Below, in pieces: positions 10,246 through 17,602 of a DNA stretch of 64,000 nt. Position 1 is the stretch's first letter. Every line of letters starts with the position of its first letter. Source of the DNA: Trueperaceae bacterium (lineage in GTDB: Bacteria; Deinococcota; Deinococci; Deinococcales; Trueperaceae); NCBI GenBank assembly GCA_040905465.1, contig JBBDRK010000072.1, forward strand, positions 17,851-81,850, read 5' to 3'. The translations under genes were made by a program, and so were the position numbers. The notes beneath the pieces are model-generated. The model was not told the origin of the DNA. It did not search any database and worked only from the letters and a program-made list of their open reading frames with translations.

Positions 10246-11130
10246 TCAGGCGCTCCCGAACAGACGGGTGAATGCCCGAAGTGCGAGATGGCTTTCTGCC
10301 TGTTGACGCGGTGCCGCAATCTGCTTGGCGCCGGCGGCCTCCGCCGGTGCCCTGCGACCGAGTTGCAGCGCCGCCAGGTCGCCGTCCTGCTCGCGCAGGG
10401 CCGTTGCCATCTGGGTCCACAGCCCGCCGGACGGTGAGTGGTAGAGAGTGAGGTATTGAACCGGAACCTTTACCCGCTGCAGCAGCAAGGCGTCCTTGGC
10501 CAGATTGCGGATCCGCATCGGGGTGATGGCGCGGTGCGGGCGACGGGGCAGCTCGGCCAGCTTCAGCCGGCCCGAGGTTCGAGACGCGTAGCAGAGCTCG
10601 CCTACCAGCGTGGAAGGTCCGAACCAGGTGTCCGACGGCCTCAGTGCCGGCCGTTCCGCCAAGAGTCGATTGGGCGGAGCCACCTCGAACCTCAGCCAGA
10701 TTGGCGTCGACACGTATAGGGTAACGTCCTCGCCGCTCGGCACGTATAGCGGCGTTTCCGGCCGCACGACCACCGGCCGGTCGGCCAACAGCGCGCTAAC
10801 AGTCAGGTTCATCCCGTTGCTGCCGACGGCGAAGCGGTCCAGCGTGGCGTCGGGGTCGATCTCGTCGGCATTGCAGATGGTCGCCGCCTCGATCTCGGTG
10901 TCATCACCGGCGGGACGTTCCAGTCGGTGCAGCCGCCACTCGAACTCACGTCGCTCGACCCAGACCGCACTGGGACCGATGTTCCACCGCCGCACTTGAT
11001 CATCGGCGAATCCGGTCTGTCCCCACCATCGGCTGAGGTCCGGCGAATCGAGGTTGGTCGGTTCCGTTTCGATGGCGTTCAGCTTACCAACTGACCGGCG
11101 AGAGACGGCGGCTCTGGTATAAGGCAGCAT
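10246..11130 (-). CDS. conserved hypothetical protein (DUF432-like), first gene of the MscS operon; start uncertain
   Basis: 294-codon ORF with DRPVVVRP, YVSTPIW and DTWFGPSTLVGELCYA; coupled to mscS. Confidence 0.7.
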   Translation of the reverse strand: MLPYTRAAVSRRSVGKLNAIETEPTNLDSPDLSRWWGQTGFADDQVRRWNIGPSAVWVERREFEWRLHRLERPAGDDTEIEAATICNADEIDPDATLDRFAVGSNGMNLTVSALLADRPVVVRPETPLYVPSGEDVTLYVSTPIWLRFEVAPPNRLLAERPALRPSDTWFGPSTLVGELCYASRTSGRLKLAELPRRPHRAITPMRIRNLAKDALLLQRVKVPVQYLTLYHSPSGGLWTQMATALREQDGDLAALQLGRRAPAEAAGAKQIAAPRQQAESHLALRAFTRLFGSA

Positions 11131-12298
11131 GGACTGGATAGCGACGGCTCAAGAGGAGTTGCGGCGTCAGGGCCTGGCCGCCTGGCTGATCTACGATTTC
11201 CGCGGTTCGAATCCGGTGGCGAAGCGCTTCATGGGGCTCTCCGGGCTGATCACCCGCCGCGTCTTCCTGCTGGTTCCGGCTCGAGGGCGACTGACCCTGC
11301 TGGTGCACGCCATCGAGCGCGGGTCGTTGCCCGCCTTGCCGTACGAGATCGTCGCTTACAGCTCACGCGACTCGTTGGAGGCCGAACTGGCCGAGCTCCT
11401 GCCGGCGGACCGGATCGCGATGGAGTACTCGCCGCGCAACGACATACCCTACCTCTCGTTCGTCGACGCCGGAACGGTCGAACTGGTCCGTGAGTTGGGA
11501 AGCCAGCCGGTGAGCTCCGGCGACCTGCTGCAGGCTTTCAGCGCCTGGAGCCCGGAACAACTGGCGGCGCACGAGCGGGCGGCGGCGGTTCTCTATCGGG
11601 CTAAGGATGCGGCGTTCGTTCACCTTGCCGAGGAGGCCAGCGCCGGCCGAACGATCAGCGAGAGCGAAGTGCAGAAGGTGATCATCGCCGAGTTGCGCCG
11701 CGGCGGCCTGGAGTTCGACCACGGCCCGATCGTGGGTTTCGGTGAGAACAGCGGAGACCCTCACTACGCCACGCCGGCAACCGGCGGCCGCCTGCTCAGG
11801 AGGGGCGATGCCATCCTGCTCGACATCTTCGCCAAGGAACCGGGGGACGAGTCCCCCTATGCGGACATCACCTGGATGGGAGTCTATGGCGAGCCGTCGG
11901 CTCGCCTGCGCGAGGTCTTCGAAGTGGTGCGCGACGCGCGTGACCTGGCGGTAGCGACGATGCGAAAGGCCTATGACGCGGGCCGGCACCCGGAAGGTCG
12001 TGAGATCGACAGGGTGGTGCGAGACCGAATCACCTCACACGGCTTCGGCGAGGCCTTCATTCACCGCACCGGGCACAGCCTGGGGATGAACGGCACGCAC
12101 GGCGACGCGGTGCACCTGGACGACTTCGAGACCCGCGATACCCGGCGCCTGCTGCCCGGAATCGCAGTTACCGTCGAACCGGGAGTCTACCTCCCGGAGT
12201 TCGGGGTGCGCTCGGAGATCGACGTCGTGCTGGAGGCGGTCGGCCCTAGAGTCACGACCGAGCCACAACGTGAGTTGACCGAGGTGAAGGTGGCCTAG
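11129..12298 (+). CDS. M24 family Xaa-Pro peptidase
   Basis: DPHY, LLD...YADITW, HRTGHSLG, TVEPGVY and GVRSEID metal-ligand pattern. Confidence 0.92.
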   Translation: MDWIATAQEELRRQGLAAWLIYDFRGSNPVAKRFMGLSGLITRRVFLLVPARGRLTLLVHAIERGSLPALPYEIVAYSSRDSLEAELAELLPADRIAMEYSPRNDIPYLSFVDAGTVELVRELGSQPVSSGDLLQAFSAWSPEQLAAHERAAAVLYRAKDAAFVHLAEEASAGRTISESEVQKVIIAELRRGGLEFDHGPIVGFGENSGDPHYATPATGGRLLRRGDAILLDIFAKEPGDESPYADITWMGVYGEPSARLREVFEVVRDARDLAVATMRKAYDAGRHPEGREIDRVVRDRITSHGFGEAFIHRTGHSLGMNGTHGDAVHLDDFETRDTRRLLPGIAVTVEPGVYLPEFGVRSEIDVVLEAVGPRVTTEPQRELTEVKVA

Positions 12299-12369
12299 CG
12301 CTTCGAGCGGACGAGCCCCAGCTTGGGATGTTCCGCAACGCCTGTTCGCTACGCCTTTGCTCCGGTGGC

Positions 12370-12553
12370 CCTGACTTTCAGGACATCGAGAAGTGGGAGC
12401 AGGACATCGCTCGGCACCAACGATTGTTCGCTAAATTAAAGGCGAGACTTCCCGGGAGGAGGGGGATGAGCGACAGGTGGATGGACTCCCTCCCAGAGGA
12501 TGAGGATGAAGACGAAGAGGTACACGCCTGAGCCCCCGTGATCCTGGAGGCGG
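12370..12553 (+). pseudogene. internally deleted, fused remnant of a paralog of the 13627-14087 gene pair
   Basis: Encodes DIEKWEQDIARHQRLFAKLKARLPGRRG (cf. DIVKWEKDVARHQRNLSKLTARLPGRRR) joined to MS-DRWMDSLPEDEDEDEEVHA (cf. DRWLDSLPDDDLPEDEDEDEEVHA). Confidence 0.8.
12489..12553 (+). repeat. 65-bp perfect direct repeat, copy 1 (copy 2 at 14045-14109)
   Basis: cctcccagaggatgaggatgaagacgaagaggtacacgcctgagcccccgtgatcctggaggcgg is identical at both sites. Confidence 0.95.
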
Positions 12554-12892
12554 TAGTCCGCCGATTACCGGCAGAGATTTCCGCTTTCACGAGTGAGATC
12601 CCTGGATCCGAGACGTCAAAGTCCGTCGCCCCCGGCGGTAGCCCAAGCTGAGGCAAGCGTCGGGCTGTTGCCGACGGATACAACGGTCATCGGGTTGCCC
12701 CATTAGGATAGAGGCACGATGTGGAGCCCTGACTGCGCGAGCTGGTACGAGTGCTACGTACTGCCGCTCTGGGCAGCGCGGCCGGCATCGTGTGACGTGC
12801 TGATCGTCTAGATCTCCCTGAACGTTCACGAGTTGCAATCGGGATGCTCTTTCGTCCCGGCAATCCTCTCGTTTTAGCCAGGGAGATCAATC

Positions 12893-13519
12893 ATGGTCAA
12901 CGCCGTTCTGAACGGTTTCATACTCGGATTCATATCGTCTCCGACCTGCCCAAGCAACGCCGAGGAGGCCCGCTGGGGCAGCCGGTACGGCCTTGGCGCC
13001 GCGCTCCTGGTGGGTGCCGGCGCCATTGCCGGAGACGCTGTAGTACTGCTGTTCACGTTGCTCGGGCTCTACCCATTGCTGCTGGCATTTCCGAGTCTCG
13101 AAAGGGTCTTGTGGCTCGCGGGTTCATTTGTCCTCGGATATCTGGCTTGGGGGATGCTGCGGGAAGCGCGGCAGCCGGACCCGGCAGCAGACGAGCTCGA
13201 CGCCGCCGCGTCGCCACGGCTAGGCTTGCGACCGTTTTTCAGGGGCCTGCTGATCACCGCTCTGAACCCGTTCACGTTCGCCTGGTGGATCGGTCTGCTG
13301 GGCGTCTCGTCGCTTTCGTCCGGAGACCTCCCCATCCTCTTCGCCGGGGCGGTACTCGCAGGTTCGCTGGCGTGGTTCGTCGGCCTGGCAGGGCTTCTGC
13401 ACTTTAGTCGCGGGAAAATCTCGGAAGGTGCACGTCGTTGGATGCTTGTCGTTGGCGCCCTGGTGATGTTCGGTTACGCCAGCTGGCTGGCAGTCGAGGG
13501 ACTGACGGTGAGCTTATGA
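12893..13519 (+). CDS. LysE/RhtB family translocator
   Basis: About 6 TM segments, GFILG...PTCPSN, GAIAGD and GLLITALNP; GGGAGA SD. Confidence 0.85.
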   Translation: MVNAVLNGFILGFISSPTCPSNAEEARWGSRYGLGAALLVGAGAIAGDAVVLLFTLLGLYPLLLAFPSLERVLWLAGSFVLGYLAWGMLREARQPDPAADELDAAASPRLGLRPFFRGLLITALNPFTFAWWIGLLGVSSLSSGDLPILFAGAVLAGSLAWFVGLAGLLHFSRGKISEGARRWMLVVGALVMFGYASWLAVEGLTVSL

Positions 13520-13626
13520 GCCGCCGTCGGCGAAAAGGTGGATGAGGGGATGGGCGGCAGCGGTCTCAATATCGTCAACTACCGCCTCGAGCCCCCTCGG
13601 ACTAGCTAAGGTTCGAACAATGCTGT

Positions 13627-13824
13627 GTGGGCGATAACAAGAAGCTTCGCAAGCAAATAAGGGCCGAGGTGAGCGTTATCGACGCGCACTTGGACAAGAT
13701 TGCCAACGAGCTCTTGAATGAGTACCCGAATCGACGTGACATTGTGAAGTGGGAGAAGGATGTCGCTCGCCATCAAAGAAATTTGTCTAAGCTGACGGCA
13801 AGGCTCCCCGGGAGGAGGCGCTAA
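13627..13824 (+). CDS. small basic protein (65 aa), first gene of a putative TA-like pair
   Basis: K/R-rich, probably helical; TAATG overlap with the next gene; a paralogous remnant upstream differs largely at synonymous sites. Confidence 0.75.
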   Translation: MGDNKKLRKQIRAEVSVIDAHLDKIANELLNEYPNRRDIVKWEKDVARHQRNLSKLTARLPGRRR

Positions 13825-14087
13825 TGAGCAGCACAGAACACCTCAACTGGCTGCTGGAACAAGCGGCCGGCAATGCACGCACTTTCCTCGATGCGTGGGA
13901 GAAGCTGAAGAGGGCGGACGCCGACTCTGACGAGCATGTGACGCTCGAGGGGGAAGTGCTGGCTTGGCTCATGCAGGTAAAGTTCGATGCCGAGGATGTG
14001 CACGCCGAGAACGACAGATGGTTAGACTCTCTGCCAGATGACGACCTCCCAGAGGATGAGGATGAAGACGAAGAGGTACACGCCTGA
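13824..14087 (+). CDS. small acidic protein (87 aa), second gene of the pair
   Basis: GGAGGAGG SD at 13811-13818; D/E-rich C-terminus; stop-start overlap. Confidence 0.78.
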   Translation: MSSTEHLNWLLEQAAGNARTFLDAWEKLKRADADSDEHVTLEGEVLAWLMQVKFDAEDVHAENDRWLDSLPDDDLPEDEDEDEEVHA

Positions 14088-14109
14088 GCCCCCGTGATCC
14101 TGGAGGCGG
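14045..14109 (+). repeat. 65-bp perfect direct repeat, copy 2
   Basis: Identical to 12489-12553. Confidence 0.95.
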
Positions 14110-14174
14110 CTAGGCCGGTTCGGCCCGGACCCCTTGGCAATGCTCGGTTCGTTACAACTTCGACGATTGCTGAA

Positions 14175-14203
14175 TTGACACCGTAGGCTAATAACGCTAT
14201 AGT
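14175..14203 (+). promoter_or_regulatory. near-consensus sigma-A promoter
   Basis: TTGACA (14175-14180), 17-nt spacer, TATAGT (14198-14203); ATG at 14215. Confidence 0.8.
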
Positions 14204-14214
14204 CTTATTCCACT

Positions 14215-15690
14215 ATGGACTCAAAAGGCAAAGGAACCCTGCAGGATCCGCGCTTCGTGGATCGCGAAAGGGAGCTGAATGAACTGCGTTCGCTCGCCGA
14301 ACGCGGCGGGCCCGCGCTCGCACTGCTGTACGGACGCCGCCGCGTCGGGAAAACCTACCTACTCGACCACGCTTGGGCAGGAAAGCGCTCCTTCTACTTC
14401 CTCGCCGGCGATACCACGGAGGAACAAAACAAACGCGAACTCCTTAGCGAGATAACGCCCCTGCTGCAAGACCCGGCTGATGCCGACCCCAGCCTGTTCC
14501 CGAGCTGGCGCCACGTGTTCCGCCTTTTCGCCGACCTAGCGTCCAATGAACCCTTCGTCGTGATTCTCGACGAGTTCCAGCACCTGCTCAACAAGGAAGA
14601 AGACATCGCATCGCAACTAATGGCGGTATGGGACCGGGAAGTGCGCGGAAGGCCTCTGGTGCTCATCGCCTGCGGCTCCGAGGTCGCGACAATGGAAGAG
14701 CTCGGCAGCGGCGCCGGTCCGCTCTACGGCCGTTGGACCTGGGCCGCCCGCCTCCGTCCGTTCTCATACCTTCACGCCGCCCAAATGACACCCGAGCGGC
14801 CAACCCGCGAAAAGATGCTCCTCTACGGCATACTGGGCGGCACCCCCCGCTTCCTCGCGGCAATTCGTCCGGAGGACGACTTGGCCGAACGGCTGGTCGA
14901 GTCGGTGCTGTCGCCCCACGGCGAGGTGAACATTCAACTCGACCGGATCATCGAACAGGAAAAGGGGATCCGCGACCCTGCCGAGTACCGGGCCGTCCTC
15001 ACCGCCATCGCCAACGGGACAACTCTCCTCCCGGAAATCGCCAACGCAACTGGACTGCAGGACCGTGCGCATGTGGTACGCCGCGTTGTGGAGATCCTCG
15101 AGAACCTCGAACTGGTGTGGCGCGAGCGTAACTTTGATGCAGGCAAGAAGGCCCCTTATCGTCACCGCATCTCCGACCACGCCGTACGGTTCTGGTACCG
15201 ATTCGTGTACCCGCACAGGAGTCGACTCGAGACCGGCGATCCCAAGGAGGTGTGGATGCACCATGTTCAGCCGCACCTCGACGACTACATGGGCAAGGCG
15301 TTCGAGAGCATCTGCCGGGAGGCCTACCGGCACCACCATTTCCGCTGGGGGCTTCCCGACTTCCAACAGTGGGCCCGCTGGGAAGGGCGAGACCGTAACC
15401 GCCGAAGCATCGAACTCGACCTCGTGGCGCGCCTCGACGACGACCGAATCCTGACCGGAGAGTTCAAGTGGTCCTCGAAACCGATTGGCGCGGAGGTACA
15501 CGGGAAACTCCTTCGCAACCTCGAGGATCTCGGGCGCTCCGGGCAGGCGTGGGCGCAGGAGGCACTGCCAGGAACGCGTTCGGCGGGTCACCTCTACGTG
15601 AGCGCCGCTGGCTTCACCCCCGAACTCCAGCAACTCGCCCGGGCCGACCCCAACATCAGGCTGCTAAACCTCGACGACCTCTACGAATAG
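14215..15690 (+). CDS. archaeal-type P-loop ATPase with C-terminal DUF234/PD-(D/E)XK-like domain
   Basis: FVDREREL, Walker A GRRRVGKT, Walker B VVILDEFQ, GGTP, FWYRF and ELDLV...GEFKW. Confidence 0.88.
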   Translation: MDSKGKGTLQDPRFVDRERELNELRSLAERGGPALALLYGRRRVGKTYLLDHAWAGKRSFYFLAGDTTEEQNKRELLSEITPLLQDPADADPSLFPSWRHVFRLFADLASNEPFVVILDEFQHLLNKEEDIASQLMAVWDREVRGRPLVLIACGSEVATMEELGSGAGPLYGRWTWAARLRPFSYLHAAQMTPERPTREKMLLYGILGGTPRFLAAIRPEDDLAERLVESVLSPHGEVNIQLDRIIEQEKGIRDPAEYRAVLTAIANGTTLLPEIANATGLQDRAHVVRRVVEILENLELVWRERNFDAGKKAPYRHRISDHAVRFWYRFVYPHRSRLETGDPKEVWMHHVQPHLDDYMGKAFESICREAYRHHHFRWGLPDFQQWARWEGRDRNRRSIELDLVARLDDDRILTGEFKWSSKPIGAEVHGKLLRNLEDLGRSGQAWAQEALPGTRSAGHLYVSAAGFTPELQQLARADPNIRLLNLDDLYE

Positions 15691-15767
15691 CAGTGAAGTG
15701 GGAGGAGGATGTCGCTTCCGCTCGCCGCGTCCAGCGTACGCGAGTGTCGCGTGGTGCCTTCCAGCCG

Positions 15768-17179: not shown

Positions 17180-17602
17180 TTACTCCGCGACCTCCCACGC
17201 CGGATTCCAGGCGATCTCCCAGAGGTGGCCGTCGGGATCCTGGAAGTACCCGGAGTACCCGCCCCAGAAGCGGCCTCCTGGCGGGTCTGTGACATTCGCG
17301 CCGGAGCGCTCTGCCTGACGCACCAGGTCGTCGACCTCCTGCTTGGACTTCACGTTGTGGCCGATGGCAAACGCCCCGCTGCTCCGTCCGCTCGCTGTTA
17401 CTTTGGCATCCTTGGCAAGCGCGGCGCGGGGGTAGAGGGCCAGTACCAGGTCGTCGTTCATCTCGAAGAAGACGACTGCTCCGTCTTCGAACTCGGTTCC
17501 GACGATCCCTTTCGTCGGCAGGCCGAGTCCGTCGCGGTAGAATGCGAGCGACCGCTCCAGATCCTCGACGCCTAGCGTAATGACCTTGATTCGGGGCCTC
17601 AT
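17180..17602 (-). CDS. VOC/glyoxalase family protein
   Basis: ITLGVEDLERSLAFY and FWGGYSGYFQDPDGHLWEIAWNP; AAGGGAG SD. Confidence 0.92.
   Translation of the reverse strand: MRPRIKVITLGVEDLERSLAFYRDGLGLPTKGIVGTEFEDGAVVFFEMNDDLVLALYPRAALAKDAKVTASGRSSGAFAIGHNVKSKQEVDDLVRQAERSGANVTDPPGGRFWGGYSGYFQDPDGHLWEIAWNPAWEVAE

Follow-up and report, generated by a model that had tools for sequence, protein, structure and literature searches.

Within a 64,000-nucleotide stretch of the genome of a Trueperaceae bacterium (the window, in what follows), two short genes, A and B, overlap and encode a basic and an acidic protein. Do these proteins form a toxin and its antidote and, if so, do they belong to any system already described? 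The preliminary description had proposed a novel toxin-antitoxin or toxin-immunity pair, and this proposal stands in part: the pairing of the two genes, their patchy and multi-copy distribution, the presence of A-like domains at RHS C-termini and an asymmetric pattern of decay all speak for it. The best explanation, to which we assign a probability of roughly 0.55, is a toxin-antidote module of an as yet unnamed family, in which A and B stand alone as a unit and are coupled in translation, as predicted from the genomes.

We started from the sequence of the pair (Table 1). The two products have opposite charge, since ORF A encodes 17 K/R against 9 D/E (net +8) and ORF B 6 K/R against 27 D/E (net -21). 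The genes meet in a TAATG overlap, in which the last A of the TAA stop codon of A is the first base of the ATG of B, with one base in common. The Shine-Dalgarno sequence GGGAGGAGG lies at 13810-13818, 5 nt 5' of this ATG, within the codons of A for P-G-R-R. The GC content is 0.55 over positions 13400-13999, as compared to 0.64-0.68 on each side. All the features from which the preliminary description had started, namely a coupled pair of a basic 65-residue and an acidic 87-residue protein, a stop-start overlap with an internal Shine-Dalgarno sequence and a GC content lower than that of the flanks, were thus recovered from the coordinates, the residue counts and the base composition. Small, adjacent and co-directional genes with such an overlap and an embedded Shine-Dalgarno sequence have the layout of type II toxin-antitoxin modules. 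B also overlaps the stop codon of A and hence occupies the place of an immunity gene directly 3' of a toxin domain. A itself is free-standing in the window, with neither the large delivery protein nor the boundary motif of polymorphic toxins, and the window sequence holds no operator-like inverted repeat upstream of A. That the pair is more than a chance arrangement follows from its homologues, which have the same order and coupling in dozens of other genomes.

Table 1. Position of the A-B pair, its decayed paralogue and neighbouring genes in the window
Feature	Position	Strand	Basis
Gene A, basic alpha-hairpin protein, candidate toxin	13627-13824	+	ORF, GTG start, 65 aa
Gene B, acidic alpha-hairpin protein with disordered acidic tail, candidate antitoxin/immunity protein	13824-14087	+	ORF, ATG start, 87 aa
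Coupling signals: GGGAGGAGG Shine-Dalgarno sequence inside A, then TAATG	13810-13826	+	Sequence
Decayed paralogue, chimeric 67-aa ORF (C-terminal part of A' and B' with internal deletion)	12328-12531	+	Sequence comparison
70-nt direct repeat, upstream copy (3' end of B and 22 nt past the stop)	12484-12553	+	97% identical to 14040-14109
70-nt direct repeat, downstream copy	14040-14109	+	97% identical to 12484-12553
LysE-family exporter gene, between remnant and pair (context, outside the module)	12893-13519	+	Pfam LysE, 2.8e-23
ATPase_2 and DUF234 gene, PADLOC PDC-S27-like (context, association not conserved)	14215-15690	+	Pfam; PADLOC, 2e-40

A diverged second copy of the pair had also been described upstream. 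The similarity is real, but the copy turned out to be a deletion remnant and not a full pair. In the chimeric ORF, ~27 codons from the 3' end of an A-like gene (A') are followed by the two residues 'MS' and then by the ~19 terminal codons of a B-like gene (B'), so that A' lacks its N-terminal half and B' has an internal in-frame deletion. The A' part (12382-12462) shares 75% DNA identity with positions 13738-13818 and, when the 27 aligned codons are read one by one, differs from A by 10 synonymous and seven non-synonymous codon changes, in line with the synonymous changes noted in the preliminary description. The tail of B' is letter for letter the C-terminus of P0005, a B homologue 57% identical to the B of the window, while another B homologue, P0003, is 91% identical to it. 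P0005 and P0003 each come from a contig of 3657 nt, possibly one and the same, and a relative may therefore carry two whole neighbouring pairs. It follows that the window once had two paralogous pairs flanking the LysE gene, one of which decayed.

To follow the pair beyond the window, we searched 364 Deinococcota genomes, as well as larger sequence collections. B of the window alone matches in 11 of the 128 genomes of its own family, the window's genome included. A profile built from seven A proteins detects 61 of the 364 genomes (13 of 127 in family f1, 5 of 125 in f2, 12 of 19 in f3, 5 of 23 in f4, 25 of 68 in f5, 0 of 1 in f6, plus the window's genome), several of them with two to four matches, and a profile built from 35 B proteins detects 77. 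One genome, G089, contributes a single row to each of the alignments A2, A3 and A7 and is counted in the family and phylum scans; no conclusion rests on it alone. In a library of 1.84 billion proteins, the A profile matches 199 clusters at E <= 0.001, of which 36 reach E <= 1e-10, and among the 150 matches listed a length of 60-68 residues is nearly universal. All names recovered for either protein read "hypothetical protein", except that one member of the mixed cluster of P0157 is labelled a DUF1680 family protein. Searches of plasmids and phages with A of the window (tblastn) found nothing; P0036, another member of the A family, found nothing among phages and viral contigs, and its sole plasmid match was an RHS gene; this near absence from phages and plasmids is a point against the toxin-antidote reading. 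Look-alikes in the ESM Atlas fall into unnamed clusters from Acidobacteriota, Cyanobacteriota and Nitrospirota, which we take as leads and not as evidence. A full-text literature search returned no paper on the pair, which is weak evidence that it is undescribed because text searches are blind to a protein without a name. Judging from sequence comparison, A and B are a real, still unnamed family that recurs across the Deinococcus-Thermus phylum, with a distribution that is patchy, multi-copy and independent of context (61 of 364 genomes, up to three or four copies in several of them, and no conserved neighbour).

Since unpaired homologues would speak against a two-gene module, we looked at what accompanies each gene. 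In the Deinococcota genomes, the A profile has 89 matches, and at 79 of them a B-profile match follows immediately on the same strand. Seven of the other 10 were read, and an acidic B-like ORF was present at each. At one A match, the first repeat of a CRISPR array interrupts the gene at about residue 52, and one unpaired match is the remnant of the window itself. An A-like match inside a 1007-residue frame of genome G086 was discarded as a false positive, being the coiled-coil linker of an FtsK-like protein. In a metagenome scan, which returned 22 loci, a B-like ORF lies just 3' of the A match at all 20 that were read. Among the loci read, we saw no intact A without a B-like ORF, and on this evidence pairing is obligatory from the side of A. 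It is not obligatory from the side of B, as 43 of 120 B-profile matches lack an A-profile match upstream.

The coupling signals are also shared. At most junctions of the loci compared, a GGAGG-type site lies within the LPGG or LPGR codons of A, and the start of B overlaps or adjoins the end of A. An exception is found in family f4 and in Thermus, where the start of B lies 51-69 nt within A. For f4 we had considered a rare ATT or ATC start of B, but abandoned it, since the frame can equally be opened by an ATG that lies 51-54 nt inside A. Among 24 loci, A starts with GTG at 10, with ATG at eight and with TTG at three. The net charge across 18 loci ranges from +2 to +15 for A and from -21 to +2 for B, and B of the window has the lowest value.

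We then asked whether either protein resembles a known toxin or antitoxin. As the preliminary description had stated, no known fold of this kind is recognisable: neither A nor B matches any toxin or antitoxin family, or indeed any entry, in Pfam, NCBIfam, PADLOC or PHROGs, and when profiles of the two were compared with the sequences of solved structures they returned only coiled-coil noise, at E values of ~0.1 or higher. AF2 predicts both proteins as two-helix hairpins, with helices at 3-29 and 36-59 in A (pLDDT 90.9) and at 3-30 and 36-69 in B (pLDDT 88.7, with a low-confidence acidic tail). A Foldseek search of the PDB with these models yielded generic hairpins only, none at E <= 0.001, and a wide VIA-align search with A returned generic hairpins with Z ~9, inside the background for helical models. 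Neither the sequence and domain searches nor the fold searches placed A in a known toxin superfamily, and no enzyme-like fold or motif was found in it. The proposal of the preliminary description that A binds or cleaves nucleic acid, with B possibly as a mimic, is not supported by these data. In an alignment of 50 A sequences, H21, K24 and W42 are invariant and G2, R8, I25, E28, P34 and L60 nearly so; hydrophobic residues recur at positions 7, 11, 14, 18, 25 and 29 of helix 1 and 39, 42, 46, 53, 56 and 60 of helix 2. Because H21, E28 and W42 occupy heptad core positions, they may be structural or interface residues rather than functional ones. The alignment of B has no invariant column. A diverges more slowly than B, with a median pairwise identity of 41% as compared to 25%, and is the more conserved of the two in 150 of 153 locus pairs.

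Prediction of an A+B complex gave scores of 0.70, 0.00 and 0.02 in three runs and was counted neither for nor against binding. Natural fusions of the two were also found. In P0156 (145 residues), a full-length A is joined to a B-like half (B profile 94%, E 1.5e-7), P0108 is a similar fusion with a weaker match to B (54%), and in P0157 of Meiothermus cerbereus a frameshifted A runs into B. Among 8000 candidates scored for long fused forms, two proteins passed E <= 0.001, one of them a full-length A+B fusion and the other a frameshifted A into B, which is weak evidence that further such forms are absent. P0156 fits a physical A-B unit, as far as sequence can indicate; in a classical toxin-antitoxin pair, full-length fusions of this kind (P0156, P0108) would be uncommon.

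These properties can be set against those of described systems. Type II toxin-antitoxin modules in which the toxin gene comes first include HigBA, HicAB and MqsRA. Like them, A and B are small, co-directional and coupled, with the basic product first and the acidic one second, and they are patchy, multi-copy and free of a fixed context, with the first gene often lost and the second kept. Unlike them, A and B lie outside known toxin and antitoxin folds, as plain alpha-hairpins with no enzymatic motif, and B has no recognisable DNA-binding domain of the HTH, RHH or AbrB type expected of a type II antitoxin (Pfam, NCBIfam and an AF2 model that is a plain hairpin). The pair thus departs from classical type II modules in two respects, having neither a DNA-binding antitoxin nor a known toxin fold. 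WXG100 proteins of the EsxA/EsxB type are hairpin heterodimers that are encoded by adjacent genes and form a four-helix bundle. A and B resemble them as adjacent genes for small helical hairpins, which from the models would be expected to form a four-helix bundle. They differ from them in that the loop of A is conserved as P34-D/N35 and lacks a W-x-G motif, B has no invariant residue, A and B have fewer residues and carry strongly opposite charges, and no secretion-system context was seen at the loci examined.

A further line of evidence comes from large proteins that end in an A-like domain. The preliminary description had pointed to the C-terminal domains of polymorphic toxins as a place to look for relatives, and two fused examples were found there. 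The tblastn match of P0036 lies at the end of a 1913-residue protein encoded on plasmid NZ_CP062791.1 of Cytobacillus oceanisediminis, which contains RHS_repeat (3.8e-44) and DUF6531. At its C-terminus, an RHS end motif (…MVDPEGE) is followed by ~45 Gly-rich hydrophobic residues and by a 55-residue A-like domain that extends to the stop codon and matches the A profile in hhalign at 98.2% (E 4.8e-14). The second example is the metagenomic protein P0155 (191 residues), in which an RHS-like end motif (…DPINVFDLDGL) precedes an A-like domain (98.8%, E 7e-17) and then a hydrophobic tail. The A-like domain therefore occupies the place of a toxin domain, after an RHS-type end motif and, in the Cytobacillus protein, at the extreme C-terminus. 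The Cytobacillus protein shares its hydrophobic module with two small plasmid proteins that end in another C-terminal domain, for which Pfam returned no family, and the A-like domain may occupy the position of an interchangeable warhead.

An acidic ORF of 87 residues (net -6) starts 12 nt 3' of the Cytobacillus RHS gene. RHS or polymorphic toxins and their immunity proteins are exemplified by Tse5/Tsi5, mentioned in PMC12744356. The resemblance to such systems lies in the Cytobacillus homologue, with its A-like domain after the RHS end motif and its acidic ORF 12 nt downstream. The differences are that A of the window is a free-standing protein of 65 residues with no delivery domain, and that the Cytobacillus downstream ORF has no detectable relation to B (hhalign 0.2%).

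If A and B are a toxin and its antidote, the pair might work as follows. A, as a small basic two-helix hairpin, would be harmful to the cell because it binds a cellular target stoichiometrically, and not through catalysis. The likeliest contact surface would be its conserved and exposed N-terminal basic motif, G-x-N-K-x-x-R-K-x-I; as a first guess the target may be a polyanion, either nucleic acid or the ribosome, and as a second the inner face of the membrane. B, likewise a two-helix hairpin but acidic and ending in an acidic tail, would pack together with A as a helical bundle and so neutralise it. Expression is probably biased towards B, which has an ATG and a strong Shine-Dalgarno sequence in the conserved LPGG/LPGR codons, whereas A often starts with GTG or TTG. 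With a strong start for B and a weak one for A, the molar amount of B would not fall below that of A. On the best reading, the logic of the pair is related both to type II toxin-antitoxin modules and to polymorphic toxins with their immunity proteins, and it is as a family that the pair appears new.

We also consider, tentatively and with less confidence than even odds would call for, a broader version in which A represents a new non-enzymatic hairpin toxin domain of ~60 residues, used both as the toxin of an intracellular two-gene addiction or immunity module in Deinococcota and as an RHS warhead for interbacterial toxins in Bacillota, with B-type hairpins as dedicated neutralisers that are kept alone after the loss of A against A-type toxins coming from other cells or genetic elements. 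If this were true, the pair would be among the smallest all-helical protein toxin-antidote pairs acting by bundle formation. Should A prove toxic and B neutralising, the biology of toxin-antitoxin and toxin-immunity systems would gain a new fold class in which one hairpin counters another, names and testable functions could be given to two families of "hypothetical proteins" that occur in about one-fifth of the sampled Deinococcota genomes and in other phyla, and an intracellular module would be linked to RHS-delivered weapons. The small size of both partners makes genetics and structural work easy and could possibly provide a compact counter-selection or kill-switch part for thermophiles.

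Since B is often found without A, we analyzed the 43 orphan B matches, 21 of which have E <= 1e-9 (16 of these with upstream sequence). Using a broad A profile of 50 sequences, we found no full-length A in one frame upstream of 40 of the 43, with seven of these 40 stretches shortened by contig ends, and detected partial remnants of A (E < 0.01) upstream of eight of the 40. At several loci a broken A lies beside an intact B, because of in-frame stops (L024, L034, L126 and L142) or frameshifts (L026, L127 and L147); at L090 a deletion fuses the first 12 residues of A to B, and at L025 and L144 A is truncated at its N-terminus. In genome G255 both the A match and the B match carry an in-frame stop, and in the remnant of the window both genes are decayed. 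Decay is asymmetric in the loci compared: A is often broken or lost with B intact, and the reverse was never seen.

The genus g52 shows successive states of this decay, with an intact pair in G279, a broken A in G280, remnants in G281 and G277, little left in G283 and no recognisable A upstream of B in G284, the last of which is outside the dN/dS comparison. When the whole genomes were searched with the broad A profile, no A was found in G277, G283 and G284, and nothing but the remnant in G281 (these genomes are 70-86% complete). The dN/dS of B is nonetheless 0.03-0.18 over 10 pairwise comparisons among five genomes, and 0.10-0.18 among the three genomes compared that lack A. Orphan B genes are under purifying selection. 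In polymorphic-toxin systems, orphan immunity genes are likewise kept under selection with no toxin beside them, as B is in g52. A maintained orphan B fits orphan immunity or antitoxin genes, at least by its sequence pattern, and is just as compatible with an independent function of B.

This second possibility leads to the alternative that survives best, in which the work is done by B, and A is a partner or regulator that can be dispensed with. The hairpins of both would form a non-toxic heterodimeric bundle with a role in the cell, such as a small regulator or adaptor, and A would only modulate B. The conserved orphan B genes, which evolve at the rates given above in genomes where no full-length A was found, and the fusions, above all the full-length P0156, are the reasons why we keep it as a serious if unlikely contender. 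The share of B matches that lack A points the same way, as does the genomic context of the pair. Its neighbours are mostly housekeeping genes, with no enrichment of mobile elements or defence genes among 136 flanking ORFs from 21 loci. In Thermus, it lies just 5' of asd (the gene with both semialdehyde dehydrogenase domains) at at least 11 loci, a fixed place that looks vertically inherited and is a point against the toxin-antidote reading. Were B to have its own role, the conserved orphan genes would point to small proteins with a still undescribed function in Thermus and related bacteria. Against this alternative, A-like domains end RHS-type proteins exactly at the position of toxin domains, A is never found without B, and A is much more conserved than B, which is the opposite of what is expected from a dispensable accessory. 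The patchy and multi-copy distribution, with two pairs in tandem at one locus, also disfavours it.

A second alternative keeps the toxin-antidote logic and moves its site of action. In both RHS-type proteins the A-like domain adjoins a hydrophobic Gly/Ala-rich segment, in one case before it and in the other after it, and this segment could itself be the toxic part. The A-like hairpin would then act at the cytoplasmic membrane, together with the segment in the delivered forms, and B would shield A in the cytoplasm. Glycine-zipper toxins that depolarise membranes and have soluble cytoplasmic immunity proteins (EsxX/ExiAB and TelE/TipE) are described in PMC12744356. The delivered forms of A resemble these toxins in that a hydrophobic stretch rich in Gly adjoins the A-like domain and a small soluble protein is encoded just 3'. 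According to PMC12744356, ExiA and ExiB are alpha/beta proteins, unlike the hairpin B. Free-standing A also differs from glycine-zipper toxins, as A of the window is highly charged and contains no hydrophobic segment of the GxxxG-helix type. Moreover, the recurrence of the hydrophobic module with a different C-terminal domain in the two plasmid proteins suggests that it is a separable part. We consider this membrane-acting version improbable.

The gene that follows the pair raises the question of whether the module extends to a third component. The preliminary description had placed the pair in an accessory patch together with an ATPase-nuclease. The patch itself is borne out: in both congeners the M24 peptidase gene (11129-12298 in the window) adjoins the glyoxalase-family gene (17180-17602), with none of the remnant, the LysE gene, the A-B pair and the ATPase gene between them, and the block that holds these four is strain-specific. 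One congener, G053, has the pair on another contig. A functional link to the ATPase, by contrast, was not supported. A, B and the ATPase_2/DUF234 gene might form a single three-gene defence system, as the genes are adjacent on the same strand, all three lie in the strain-specific block, and the ATPase matches the PADLOC candidate PDC-S27. However, a promoter-like site close to consensus (11 of 12) at 14175-14203 separates B from the ATPase gene, ATPase_2 occurs in two of the 136 neighbour ORFs, one of them the window's own, and the other congener, G052, has a homologue of the ATPase elsewhere in its genome and no pair. We therefore regard a three-gene system as very improbable. The same neighbourhood analysis, which had been suggested at the outset, indicates that the pair is autonomous: the 136 ORFs contain 176 Pfam families, none of them dominant and with generic AAA domains the commonest (three to five ORFs), and all-against-all BLAST revealed no third conserved gene, only local synteny among close relatives.

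Finally, that A and B are chance open frames or non-functional relics, as their short length, their lack of a family name and the decayed copy in the window might suggest, has a negligible probability, since their proteins are conserved across five families of the phylum with dN/dS well below 1, and both are modelled as confident helical hairpins.

The A-B pair, a basic 65-aa predicted alpha-hairpin protein (A, the candidate toxin) followed by an acidic 87-aa one (B, its candidate antitoxin or immunity protein), lies in a strain-specific block together with a decayed paralogous pair, a LysE-family exporter gene and an ATPase gene. Neither of the other two genomes of the genus has this block in the interval that separates the M24 peptidase gene from the gene of the glyoxalase family. 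Direct repeats of 70 nt (window 12484-12553 and 14040-14109) flank the segment carrying the exporter gene and the pair. The 294-aa ORF adjoining the peptidase gene has no Pfam family. The ATPase_2 + DUF234 gene, which forms part of the block, gives a hit (2e-40) to PDC-S27, a candidate defence family in PADLOC, and is preceded by a promoter-like site, TTGACA-17-TATAGT (11/12); no linkage of this gene to A-B pairs was found at other loci.

Features in and outside the window
Feature	Position	Strand	Remark
Remnant pair, LysE, A-B and ATPase block	window 12300-15700
ATPase_2 + DUF234 gene with promoter-like site	window 14175-15690		PDC-S27 match
294-aa ORF	window 10246-11130	-	adjoins M24 peptidase gene
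A homologue interrupted by CRISPR array	L030, G121:C1:346881-350036	-
222-aa P-loop protein gene	L046 1865-2533		G307, Meiothermus-group genome
Small protein with Gly-rich module	L078 2686-3390		Cytobacillus pseudoceanisediminis plasmid
Small protein with Gly-rich module	L079 2749-3399		Paraclostridium bifermentans plasmid

The window pair belongs to the type in which A and B overlap by 1-4 nt, whereas in one Deinococcota family (f4; L029, L035, L045 and L128-L134) and in Thermus (L136-L143) the start codon of B, ATG or GTG, lies 51-69 nt within A and opens a different reading frame. B therefore carries a short basic N-terminal extension in these lineages.

The A homologue at L030 stops short at about residue 52. 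At precisely this point within the gene a CRISPR array starts, in which a repeat of ~37 nt occurs at least seven times, with spacers; no B lies downstream. At L090 (G321:C220), a deletion links codons 1-12 of A to B in the same reading frame, the junction lying a few residues past the B start; judging from the sequence, the candidate toxin is lost and B would still be expressed from the start of A.

A Gly-rich hydrophobic module is common to two small plasmid proteins (L078 and L079) and the C-terminus of the Cytobacillus RHS protein, a 1913-aa plasmid protein ending in an A-like domain. Both small proteins have a signal-peptide-like N-terminus and a His-rich C-terminal domain, which differs from that of the RHS protein and has no Pfam match, and each gene is followed within ~12 nt by a small ORF (45 or 78 aa). 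Finally, a P-loop gene with weak AAA_22 and Zot-like matches directly follows the A-B pair at L046, with overlapping stop and start, an arrangement seen once.
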